64,000 nucleotides of DNA from a virus (lineage: Duplodnaviria > Caudoviricetes): positions 1 to 64,000 of the IMG/VR virus record IMGVR_UViG_2832249651_000002; one strand, written 5' to 3'. A model generated the notes under the pieces. It ran no database searches, was not told where the DNA came from, and saw nothing but the letters and a program-made list of their open reading frames with translations. Both the position numbers and the translations under genes were made by a program. Positions 16,201 through 17,552 of this stretch are shown here, one piece after another (the first letter of the stretch is position 1; every line of letters starts with the position of its first letter).

Positions 16201-16467
16201 GTGGGAAGTAGGAATGAAGATTATATCGAGCAAAGAGCAATTGATACGGCAAATTATCTTATAGAAAATAATTCGACTATAAGGGAAACAGCTAAGCATA
16301 TGGGAGTGTCTAAGACAACCGTTCATAAGGATTTAGTAATTAGGCTCAAGGATATAAATCACTCTTTGTATGAAAATGTAAAAGAAGTCTTAGCTACAAA
16401 CTGGGAAGAGAGATATCTTAGGGGTGGATTGGCTACAAAGAAAAAGCATGAGATGTTGAGAGAATAG
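16201..16467 (+). CDS. spoIIID: Sporulation transcriptional regulator SpoIIID homologue
   Basis: IEQRAIDTANYLIENNSTIRETAKHMGVSKTTVHKDL...RGGLATKKK. Confidence 0.93.
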   Translation: MGSRNEDYIEQRAIDTANYLIENNSTIRETAKHMGVSKTTVHKDLVIRLKDINHSLYENVKEVLATNWEERYLRGGLATKKKHEMLRE

Positions 16468-16477
16468 GAGGGATTAT

Positions 16478-16624
16478 TTGAAAACTAAAATAAGGTTTGG
16501 ATTTAAGAGCAAATATCAGTTGCCACTATTTATGGTTTGGAGAGAGTACCAAAATGAAGATGGTGAAGTAGAATTTGCAAAAGTAATATTTTCAACTGAA
16601 AACCTTTTCCGAAAATCCTGCTAG
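16478..16624 (+). CDS. Small hypothetical protein (48 aa)
   Basis: GGAGG RBS, TTG start, open frame to TAG. Confidence 0.5.
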   Translation: MKTKIRFGFKSKYQLPLFMVWREYQNEDGEVEFAKVIFSTENLFRKSC

Positions 16625-16806
16625 AGCAGGTTACGAGCCTGAGATTAGTATCATCATAATCAATTAAGTTGGCGACTTATTAAAAGGCGTGTTTGCTGTA
16701 GAAACGAAGTATAAAACTTGCATATTGTAGCGTGAGTATTTAGCCAGTACGAGCATGGGAAGGCTTTGCAAGTTCCTACTTGAAGATGAAATAAATTTCA
16801 AGTAGG
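16603..16806 (+). ncRNA. Candidate structured RNA / leader
   Basis: Eight hand-identified stems in ~200 nt; last stem covers part of the downstream RBS. Confidence 0.5.
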
Positions 16807-17552
16807 TGGAAAGGTTGAAACAAATAGTAATGTTTAGTGGTGGAGCAAGTAGTAGTTATTTAGCTAAGTTGGTTGTAGAGAAATATGGTAAAGAAAATAC
16901 TATCTTCCTTCACACACCAACTTATGCAGAAGATCCAGATGCAGATAGATTTAGAGCAGAAGTAGCTGAATGTCTAGGATTACCAATCACAGTTGAAGAA
17001 GATGGTCGAAGCCTATGGCAACTAATAGAAGATAACAACTGTTTACCAAGTTTTCATATACCATTTTGTACAACGGATTTAAAAATAAAACAGAGTAGAA
17101 AGTTTTGGAATAGATTGAAAAACCGAGGAATTGATTTTACAGTTCATTTTGGATATGGGGCTGACGAGTGGAGAAGAGTCCAGAAACAATCAATAAGATT
17201 TGAAAAAGAAGAAATTAAAAGCAAATATCTAATATTTGAGAAAAGAATTGATGACAAGGAAATAAAAAGAATTATCAAAGAAGAATGGAAGATAGAGTTG
17301 CCAAGAGCATACAAGTACCTAAAGCATAATAACTGTATACCTTGTTTCAAGGGTGGTAAGGGACATTTTAAGCAAGTAGCTAAGTATTACCCTGATGATT
17401 TTAAAAAAGCTGTAGAAATGGAAGAAAAAATAGGACATACAGTTTTTAAAGATTGCACCTTAAAGGATTTGTGGGATGAGGTTCAAGCCAATAAAAATCA
17501 ATTAACATTCTTAGATGATGATTTTAATATACCTTGTGAGTGCATGGATTAA
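16806..17552 (+). CDS. PAPS-reductase/PP-loop family protein with Cys motifs
   Basis: MFSGGASS PP-loop, PFCT, HNNCIPCFKGG, C-terminal CEC. Confidence 0.8.
   Translation: MERLKQIVMFSGGASSSYLAKLVVEKYGKENTIFLHTPTYAEDPDADRFRAEVAECLGLPITVEEDGRSLWQLIEDNNCLPSFHIPFCTTDLKIKQSRKFWNRLKNRGIDFTVHFGYGADEWRRVQKQSIRFEKEEIKSKYLIFEKRIDDKEIKRIIKEEWKIELPRAYKYLKHNNCIPCFKGGKGHFKQVAKYYPDDFKKAVEMEEKIGHTVFKDCTLKDLWDEVQANKNQLTFLDDDFNIPCECMD

Follow-up and report, generated by a model that had tools for sequence, protein, structure and literature searches.

The gap between a SpoIIID-family gene and a PAPS-reductase-like gene in a 64,000-nt viral window (the window being the whole stretch of DNA analyzed here) raises the question of whether it encodes a structured RNA and, if it does, what such an RNA would do in front of this enzyme. 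The original prediction, made from the letters of the window, placed there a multi-stem, + strand RNA touching the next ribosome-binding site. Comparative pairing bears this out. The segment 16601-16816 (+) is one copy of a structured RNA within a polycistronic prophage mRNA, and its last hairpin, P5, abuts the Shine-Dalgarno (SD) sequence of the next gene. It is a copy of an uncataloged family of 150- to 220-nt pseudoknotted domains found in phages and prophages of Clostridia-type hosts. Members of the family lie within a polycistronic mRNA, after the stop codon of an upstream, often tiny, reading frame and before the start codon of a PAPS-reductase-like PP-loop gene. The RNA base-pairs with the ribosome-binding site and start codon of the enzyme gene and thus most likely controls when the enzyme is made.

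The RNA and its neighbors in the window

The gene order around the RNA is replisome organizer, DnaC/IstB-like ATPase, SpoIIID-family helix-turn-helix (HTH) protein, a 48-codon open reading frame (ORF), the RNA itself, and a 245-aa PP-loop protein (Table 1). The gap had been described as noncoding and as lying between spoIIID and the PAPS-reductase-like gene, which is correct only in part: the small ORF intervenes, overlaps the RNA, runs into its structure, and terminates within the P1 loop. Over 127 nt, covering most of this ORF, the sequence has 77% identity with a hypothetical gene of Bacillus phage vB_BcoS-136, so the ORF is probably real and the gap is not wholly noncoding; the same ORF was also found in G049, a genome of another genus that is introduced below. 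The gap is indeed richer in GC than its surroundings, but marginally so (0.39 versus 0.31 to 0.37 nearby). No promoter-like or terminator-like site was predicted to flank the RNA in the window, which places it inside a polycistronic mRNA, and its own genome carries it once.

Table 1. Features of the RNA and of the neighboring genes; positions refer to the 64,000-nt window
Feature	Position	Strand	Remarks
Replisome organizer			Early/replication module of prophage-like element; PF09681
DnaC/IstB-like ATPase			Early/replication module, near the RNA
SpoIIID-family HTH protein	16201-16467		PF12116, 6.6e-31
48-codon upstream ORF	16478-16624	+	From the ORF list; its end forms the P0 5' strand
P0	16601-10 / 16808-16	+	Outer helix; MFE fold; all cells paired in 3/3 close sequences
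P1 hairpin	16617-21 / 16626-30	+	5 bp, CCTGC/GCAGG; loop UAGA holds stop codon; 1 double change in L344
TAG stop of 48-codon ORF	16622-24	+	Inside the P1 loop
P2 domain	16633-16690	+	Short stem, AGCCUG loop motif, hairpins P2a and P2b, UUAAAAGG
P2 stem	16633-35 / 16688-90	+	Invariant among 3 sequences
P2 loop motif AGCCUG	16636-41	+	Counterpart of type-B AGRYUG
Pseudoknot AGCC/GGCU	16636-39 / 16762-65	+	4 complementary bases, invariant in 3 type-A sequences; assigned by homology
P2a hairpin (GATTA/TAATC)	16643-61	+	2 pairs changed on both sides
P2b hairpin (TAAGT-TGGCG-ACTTA)	16665-79	+	Loop UGGCG; 2 pairs changed on both sides
Candidate kissing loops UGGC / GCCA	16670-73 / 16743-46	+	Unvarying in 3/3 sequences
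P2c hairpin (GUUU/AAAC)	16691-16705	+	Invariant in 3 sequences; absent from type B
P3 (AACTTGCA/TGCAAGTT)	16715-22 / 16767-74	+	Wobble changes; 7/7 homologous pairs covary in type B
P3-enclosed conserved core	16715-16774	+	J3/4, GCGUGA, P4a, variable P4, AGCAUGGGAAGG
J3/4-core pair	U16728-A16761	+	Fits type-B covarying C-G/U-A pair 121-241
P4a	16731-34 / 16754-57	+	Within conserved core
P4 (GTAT/(A)GTAC)	16736-39 / 16747-50	+	Loop UUAGCCA; 4/4 pairs changed on both sides in L344
P5 hairpin (CCTACTTGAA/TTCAAGTAGG)	16775-84 / 16797-16806	+	10 bp, ends directly 5' of SD
SD GGAAAGG	16808-14	+	Directly before start codon; in P0 3' strand
Start codon TTG	16815-17	+	First two bases within P0 3' strand (16808-16816)
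PAPS-reductase-like PP-loop gene, 245 aa	16815-17552	+	Putative regulated gene

Every pairing named in the original prediction is present in the sequence where it had been placed, and the minimum free energy (MFE) fold of 16598-16820 recovers the stems; what the stem list missed was the outer helix, P0, and the pseudoknot. In the MFE fold, the P0 of the window is a 9-bp helix that pairs AACCUUU(U)CC with GGAAAGGUU. The structure of this form of the RNA (type A) was written from the window, and its pairs were counted over three close sequences (the window, G049, and the metagenome locus L344), to which two distant sequences (L042 and L043) are added to make up the type. Across the whole element, 97.9% of the 194 pair cells in the alignment of the three close sequences are paired, versus 33 to 44% with slid partners, and 9 of the 66 pairs have changed on both sides (one in P1, two each in P2a and P2b, and four in P4). 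The module GCGUGA...AGCAUGGG, to which the prediction had drawn attention, proved to be the conserved heart of the element.

Two interior contacts are less firmly placed. The sequences of the proposed GCCT/AGGC helix are present, but the helix competes with the pseudoknot, as 16637-40 can pair either locally with 16685-88 or in the pseudoknot with 16762-65; it is without independent support, and L344 weakens it by one pair. The pseudoknot of the window is in turn one we infer by homology, because its AGCC/GGCU register is shifted by one base from that of the commoner form of the RNA and it shows no variation. A kissing interaction between the UGGC and GCCA loops had also been suggested, and it is favored by the constancy of these bases across the three sequences, in contrast to the changing P2b and P4 stems, but it shows no covariation and is best called a candidate.

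Folding energy provides modest evidence only. The MFE of 16598-16820 is -55.7 kcal/mol (z = -2.24; 2 of 200 shuffled sequences fold equally well), the fold of 16603-16815 gives z = -1.82, and the reverse strand gives z = -2.34; given this last value, thermodynamics is a weak argument that does not choose the strand, and the comparative data must decide. Wobble pairs of the G-U type assign the structure to RNA of the + strand. The alternative of a palindrome or origin acting as DNA was rejected, as the G-U pairs and the pairing of the start codon favor RNA.

Relatives of the RNA and covariation in its commoner form

The RNA has no match among the Rfam families. At gathering scores, Rfam 15 gave 0 matches over the whole 64-kb window, and permissive searches returned only chance-level hits to unrelated eukaryotic or small RNA models in 16350-16950 (E of 0.36 to 8.4) and one irrelevant hit (E of 0.94) in 12 homologous loci. 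The resemblance to the raiA motif RNA that had been suggested in the original prediction did not hold up: that RNA is of similar size, multi-stem, and found in Firmicutes, but its genetic context differs, and its model (RF03072; 209 positions, gathering score of 101.3 bits) matched neither the window at the gathering score nor 16350-16950 at E ≤ 10. The same model gave no match in the window's own genome, but control genomes gave none either. A group I or other intron was also rejected, the element being too small and without an Rfam intron match. Literature searches found no published description of the element; the notion that a PAGEV motif precedes PAPS-reductase genes proved wrong, the name being expanded in PMC5737381 as Plasmid-Associated Gammaproteobacteria Especially Vibrionales.

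Homologues and covariation, both of which the original prediction had proposed to look for, were found: at least 74 distinct viral, metagenome, and genome leaders carry the RNA, and double changes occur in 29 of the 35 pairs of the commoner form (type B). A DNA search of 81 genomes of the family gave one true relative, G049, at 91% identity; window and G049 are 90.8% identical in the RNA (197/217), 78.1% in the downstream coding sequence, and 73.4% in spoIIID. Contigs of relatives from three metagenome runs also span the region. The best of these has 48 differences in 511 nt, and among the 40 differences listed for it, 6 are in the 216-nt RNA, 14 upstream, and 20 downstream. An exact 24-nt stretch of the window had 0 matches in viral contigs.

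Further relatives were reached through the protein. A protein-profile scan of genome contigs gave 80 loci with PP-loop homologues, and the motif shared upstream is made up of two hairpins (the first flanked by AUCC...GGUU), GUAAA, and a helix that encloses GCGUGA, a variable hairpin, and AGCAUGGGARG. A pattern for the RNA only was derived from this motif upstream of the PP-loop loci. A loose core pattern run against viral contigs had given 118 loci, of which only 10 were true and most were chance or coding matches, and it was replaced by the stricter one, which matched 25 loci in viral contigs and at least 118 loci in metagenome contigs. The covariance model R1 was built from 38 seeds, obtained by thinning 66 candidates to 40 (<88% identity) and then removing a false hit and a variant. 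It scored ≥60 bits in at least 88 metagenome loci (88 among the 118 listed, as 56 of 75 plus 32 of 43) and ≥105 bits in 19 of the 25 viral loci, and its E value was below 1e-6 in 8 of the 80 genome loci; the window scored 38.5 bits (E of 1.8e-6). R1 had no match in 30 distant viral PP-loop loci (L008-L037), where the motif is absent, and none at E ≤ 1e-4 when 20 candidates were scored in each of 149 further genomes sampled from the class.

Type B was aligned from 75 R1 hits (74 distinct), one for each distinct score class of about 150 loci, with weak hits and variant forms excluded. In this alignment, which was fitted to the helices of the model and in which the pseudoknot was not part of that model, 92.4% of 2,574 pair cells are standard, versus 30 to 42% with partners slid by 1 to 3 columns, and the covariation score is 0.653, versus 0.06 to 0.10 for the slid partners, a value reached by 0 of 500 shuffles. 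P0, P1, P2, P3, and P5a/b covary, the homologue of the window's P1 doing so across the 74 type-B leaders, and the 4-bp P4a (CGUG/CAUG) never varies. The length of P4 is variable, and the junction nucleotides are highly conserved. In 70 of the 75 aligned sequences, the search pattern itself required TAAA, GCGTGA, and AGCATGGGARG, which accounts for their invariance there; nine sequences found via protein or DNA similarity to the window have the same core with few changes. G-U and U-G pairs are frequent in P0, P2, P3, and P5 of type B, which again identifies the sense transcript as the folded molecule.

A mutual-information scan of the unpaired type-B columns exposed further pairs that are absent from the model. 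Pairs 79-244 (AU48/GC25/CG1) and 80-243 (UA51/CG11/GC11), together with an invariant U-G, join two positions of the P2 loop to two bases after GGGARG, and pair 121-241 (CG57/UA17) joins a base of J3/4 to the R of GGGARG; each of the three has 0 unpaired cells. These covarying contacts between the P2 loop and the core show that the core is pseudoknotted.

Other variants retain different parts of the fold, and the element is therefore modular. L040, L045, and L050 keep P0, P1, P2, and P5 around a different interior, L047 has P0, P1, and P5 only, and type C (three or four variants: L248, L259 = L316, and L277) consists of only P2, P3, the core, and P4, without P0, P1, or P5. The type-C copies lie directly after an ORF of 60 to 68 codons, and downstream of them come an intrinsic terminator and a gene that looks structural. 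With a core and a terminator and none of the outer helices, they are left unexplained by a pure coupling device.

Pairing of the outer helix with the translation start

The outer helix connects the RNA to translation in both main forms. The type-B P0 has 5 bp, and the last bases of its 3' strand are the first two of the start codon. Column 313 of the alignment is the first of these bases, and its pair with column 13 is UA in 35 sequences and CG in 27, so that the P0 partner base tracks whether the start is AUG (40 leaders) or GUG (25 leaders). Among the type-A sequences, the start codon is UUG in the window, with its UU paired to AA, and GUG in L042/L043, where the partner is CAC and P0 is a different 9-bp helix in which CACCUUUAC pairs with GUAAAGGUG or GUAAGGGUG.

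The upstream reading frames end at this helix as well. In 66 of 69 distinct type-B leaders, the end of an ORF of 7 or more codons falls -2 to +18 nt from the first base of P0 (38 at -2 and 15 at +5; all are predicted ORFs, 37 of them with at least 50 codons), and two of the three leaders that lack one are located at contig ends. All five type-A sequences have a predicted upstream ORF (48, 48, 15, 13, and 13 codons) that continues across the P0 5' strand to a stop in the P1 loop, the 15-codon ORF of L344 having a poorly spaced SD. Two features expected of translational coupling by long-range pairing are in place: a helix from the end of an upstream ORF to the downstream initiation site, and a predicted upstream ORF that traverses, or stops on, the 5' strand of that helix. 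Other structures also approach the SD. P5-like hairpins abut or cover it in L344, L042/43, L361, and L342, and in the window, L342, L361, and L335, an otherwise normal SD is hidden by P0, a P5-type hairpin, or both.

From this geometry, we infer that the RNA of the window is a translational-coupling gate with a conserved core, a reading to which we assign a probability of roughly 0.6. P0 ties the end of the 48-codon ORF to the SD and to the TT of the TTG start codon, and P5 ends beside the SD; with both helices over or beside the initiation site, a free ribosome should not start there. Ribosomes translating the 48-codon ORF would traverse the P0 5' strand and halt in the P1 loop, and their opening of P0 and P1 would release the initiation site. 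The strongly conserved interior consists of the P2 loop, which forms a pseudoknot with the strand following GGGARG, and of an asymmetric internal loop made up of GCGUGA and AGCAUGGGARG. Most probably, this interior is the binding site of a small molecule or protein that would tune the opening or re-forming of P0.

Such a gate has precedents. In the MS2 Min Jou interaction, long-range pairing couples translation of the replicase to that of the coat gene; as here, a helix joins an upstream coding region to a downstream initiation site, and upstream ribosomes are thought to open it. Unlike in MS2, the two strands here enclose a conserved pseudoknotted domain of 150 to 200 nt, the setting is a family of DNA-phage mRNAs in front of one enzyme family, and the upstream stop is positioned at the helix or in the P1 loop. 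In the Escherichia coli rpmI-rplT operon (L35-L20), a long-range pseudoknot couples translation and binds the L20 repressor. In both, long-range pairing masks the downstream ribosome-binding site; relief of the masking by upstream translation and binding of a regulator by the fold, which in that case is L20, would be shared by the gate proposed here. The differences are the lack of any sequence or Rfam relationship and the class of gene.

The commoner form raises a different possibility. A strict SD core lies, unpaired, 2 to 4 nt before P0 in 70 of the 74 type-B leaders and within 20 nt before the start codon in 2 of the 74, so that the ribosome-binding site is split by the folded RNA. The RNA might then be a fold-assembled ribosome-binding site or reinitiation device, in which the fold would be required for translation because it carries the start codon within reach of an SD or stop codon some 150 nt before it, and the overlap of the stop codon with P0 fits this as well. 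The device would apply to type B and only in part to the window, where the SD is normal, adjoins the TTG, and is buried together with it by P0; moreover, P0 holds the first two start-codon bases, and these pairs would need to fray. On balance, we regard this device as improbable. Split sites are known from phage T4 genes 38 and 25, in which a hairpin lies between SD and AUG. In type B, too, the sole SD is separated from the start by folded RNA, and the closing helix joins the two, but the insert is a multi-helix pseudoknotted domain, the start codon is itself paired, and the window copy keeps a normal SD.

The type-B fold may nevertheless promote rather than block initiation, a logic opposite to that of the window form. 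A wider view that would embrace both forms, and that we put forward tentatively, as possible but well short of probable, is that the family is a sensor-controlled "RNA clamp," which would assemble or hide the ribosome start site by means of a ligand-competent pseudoknotted fold. In most members, the sole SD and the upstream stop would lie about 150 nt from the start and be joined to it only upon folding, and the window copy would be a variant that buries a conventional SD.

The downstream enzyme and possible roles of the conserved core

The PP-loop protein of the window matches PF01507 weakly (1.4e-4) and phrog_424 "PAPS reductase" clearly (9.5e-34), it has 289 homologues at E ≤ 1e-10, and its N terminus, MKQIVMFSGG, matches the starts of these homologues (MKHIV.FSGG). 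The profile of the family also matches the PDB entry 21fy_C, "PptA" (6.1e-23), for which a literature search found no published paper. Among 59 distinct ORFs of at least 60 aa downstream of the RNA (10 shorter ORFs were excluded), 57 match phrog_424 at E ≤ 1e-5; the other two are a fragment with the same N-terminal motif and, at L336, a radical-SAM protein (phrog_9298). The 57 span at least four sequence subfamilies, and PF01507 was found in 14 of 22 representatives. Because 54 of the 59 ORFs came from RNA-only searches, the association between RNA and gene is not circular.

A covarying conserved structure and a place in the leader of genes of shared function are what a riboswitch would show, and both were found. 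In a classical metabolite riboswitch, the P2-P3-P4 core would be the aptamer for a small molecule related to the chemistry of the enzyme, such as a sulfur-carrier metabolite or a nucleotide. The expression platform would be P0, P5, or a terminator, and upstream translation would be incidental. The conserved junction nucleotides, the covarying pseudoknot, and the variable-length P4 all suit such an aptamer, as does the tight link to one enzyme superfamily across at least four subfamilies, and several different platforms occur (P0 on the start, P0 and P5 on the SD, a local anti-SD hairpin in L342, and a terminator in L248, L259, and L277). The element shares with translation-controlling pseudoknotted riboswitches an aptamer-like core that covaries, a variable stem, paired initiation signals, and a single enzyme family, but it belongs to no Rfam family, and the upstream stop codon that is fixed at P0 in the 66 of 69 leaders is not a riboswitch feature. 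Nor was any conserved, mutually exclusive alternative helix found in addition to the masking of SD and start by P0 and P5, the likeness of the L259 terminator to the core being absent in L248. We consider a riboswitch that acts independently of upstream translation doubtful.

A protein could also be the partner. In a published report (PMC13551039), phage PAPS reductases are proposed to act in DNA modification or anti-defense, Aca-regulated PAPS reductases are noted, and the Aca1 and Aca2 HTH proteins are described as binding 5'-untranslated region (5'-UTR) hairpins. By analogy, either a phage regulator, such as the SpoIIID-like HTH protein of the gene just before, or the PP-loop enzyme itself, which has relatives that bind structured RNA, might bind the core or P1 and repress translation, an arrangement that in the case of the enzyme would be autoregulation. 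The RNA does travel with PP-loop genes of several subfamilies, and P1 is a near-perfect palindrome with 2 U-G in about 370 cells, versus tens in P2, P3, and P5, as would be expected of a site read as a duplex. However, the same core serves greatly diverged enzyme subfamilies, SpoIIID is not a constant neighbor (G049 has an extra ORF inserted, and most type-B loci differ), and no PP-loop gene (PF01507) was found in the type-C records, though these are fragments only 15 to 29% complete. As to the likeness with the Aca hairpins, both are leader structures of phage mRNAs that control translation, putatively so in the present case, but the Aca1 and Aca2 motifs are described in PMC13551039 as single hairpins directly downstream of the transcription start that are bound by HTH dimers, and the element here is an internal, pseudoknotted domain of 200 nt. 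A protein operator of this kind, taken as the whole explanation, seems to us rather unlikely.

The compact pseudoknotted core, its near-invariant junction bases, and its occurrence in phages could also suggest a self-cleaving ribozyme, an mRNA-processing site, or a stable trans-acting small RNA, and the terminators that end the type-C copies would fit the last of these. No Rfam ribozyme or small RNA family matches, the window element has no promoter or terminator of its own, and P0, in pairing with the start codon, suggests that the RNA acts on translation in cis, so that this reading is highly improbable. Translational coupling, with a core that would respond to a small molecule or a protein, is the explanation that we prefer for the window.

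Taken as a family, the RNA is a strong candidate for a new class of regulatory RNA, either an orphan riboswitch or a protein operator. Phage genes of phrog_424 are common in gut and environmental phages, and the element offers a testable RNA for their control, with six or more covarying helices, a pseudoknot, near-invariant junctions, and a helix that joins an upstream stop to the start of the enzyme. A ready covariance model and about 90 natural variants are available as a resource for this purpose. The commoner form, moreover, is an extreme case of the separation of SD and start codon, by a whole folded domain. If the tentative clamp view is true, the family would be a bacterial-virus counterpart of termination-reinitiation elements, in which an orphan riboswitch-like aptamer would govern phage PAPS-reductase-like enzymes of DNA or RNA modification.

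The P1 hairpin and the upstream stop codon

The loop of the P1 hairpin is of near-constant type, U-purine-purine-purine, in the window and across alignment A5, which holds 75 leaders of the commoner form (type B). The commonest loops include UAGA (22 leaders), UAAA (13), UGAAA (12), UGAAG (5), and UAAG (3). Because P1 loops almost always follow this pattern, a stop triplet stands at the loop start; in the window form, that triplet is the actual stop codon of the upstream open reading frame. Wobble pairs are nearly absent from P1, in contrast to the other helices.

Coordinates of features in the window and in related loci
Feature	Sequence	Coordinates	Remark
P1 loop	window	16622-16625	column block 30-57 of A5
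PP-loop gene	window	16815-17552 (+)	PAPS-reductase-like
Region around small upstream ORF	window	16467-16591	matches Bacillus phage vB_BcoS-136
Counterpart in vB_BcoS-136	L002	2501-2627	hypothetical gene
Extra 95-codon ORF	L003 (G049)	1059-1346	inserted between spoIIID-like gene and small ORF
Example human-gut leader	L262	659-812 (-)	

Reduced and altered leaders

Type C RNAs (viral and metagenome loci L248, L259/L316, and L277) consist of P2, P3, the core, and P4 only, and they lie directly 3' of an ORF of 60 to 68 codons. An intrinsic terminator and then a structural-looking phage gene follow them, and no PP-loop gene is seen on the short fragments that carry them. Four genome loci upstream of PP-loop genes (L040, L045, L050, and L047) retain P0, P1 (and P2), and P5 around an interior that is different or missing; the L047 leader comprises the SD, P0, P1, P5, and the start codon and nothing else.

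Human-gut metagenome loci (L262, L270, and about 20 near-identical ones) have an A-rich run (AUGGAAAAAG...) after the P0-paired AUG. With respect to this AUG, the PP-loop sequence (..YVASISGGKDS) can be read through only in the -1 frame, which lacks an in-frame start close by. This arrangement may reflect programmed frameshifting or, alternatively, an overlapping mini-ORF.

Downstream genes and mobility of the module

The PP-loop family profile matched a solved structure, PptA (PDB 21fy chain C; E = 6.1e-23), for which a literature search found no published account. The SGGxxS loop is invariant across the family, and a metal or Fe-S site is suggested because four cysteines (C-x2-C and C-x-C) are invariant or nearly so. 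At two metagenome loci (L336 and L367), a radical-SAM-domain gene (phrog_9298, 2e-28) takes the place of the PAPS-reductase-like gene after the same RNA core.

Around the small upstream ORF, the window and vB_BcoS-136, whose host (Bacillus cohnii) is a distant one, share 77% DNA identity over 127 nt, which is unusually high for phages so distant. In G049, a relative from another genus, the 95-codon ORF separates the spoIIID-like gene from the small ORF; therefore, the small ORF, the RNA, and the PP-loop gene move as a module, one that is independent of spoIIID.
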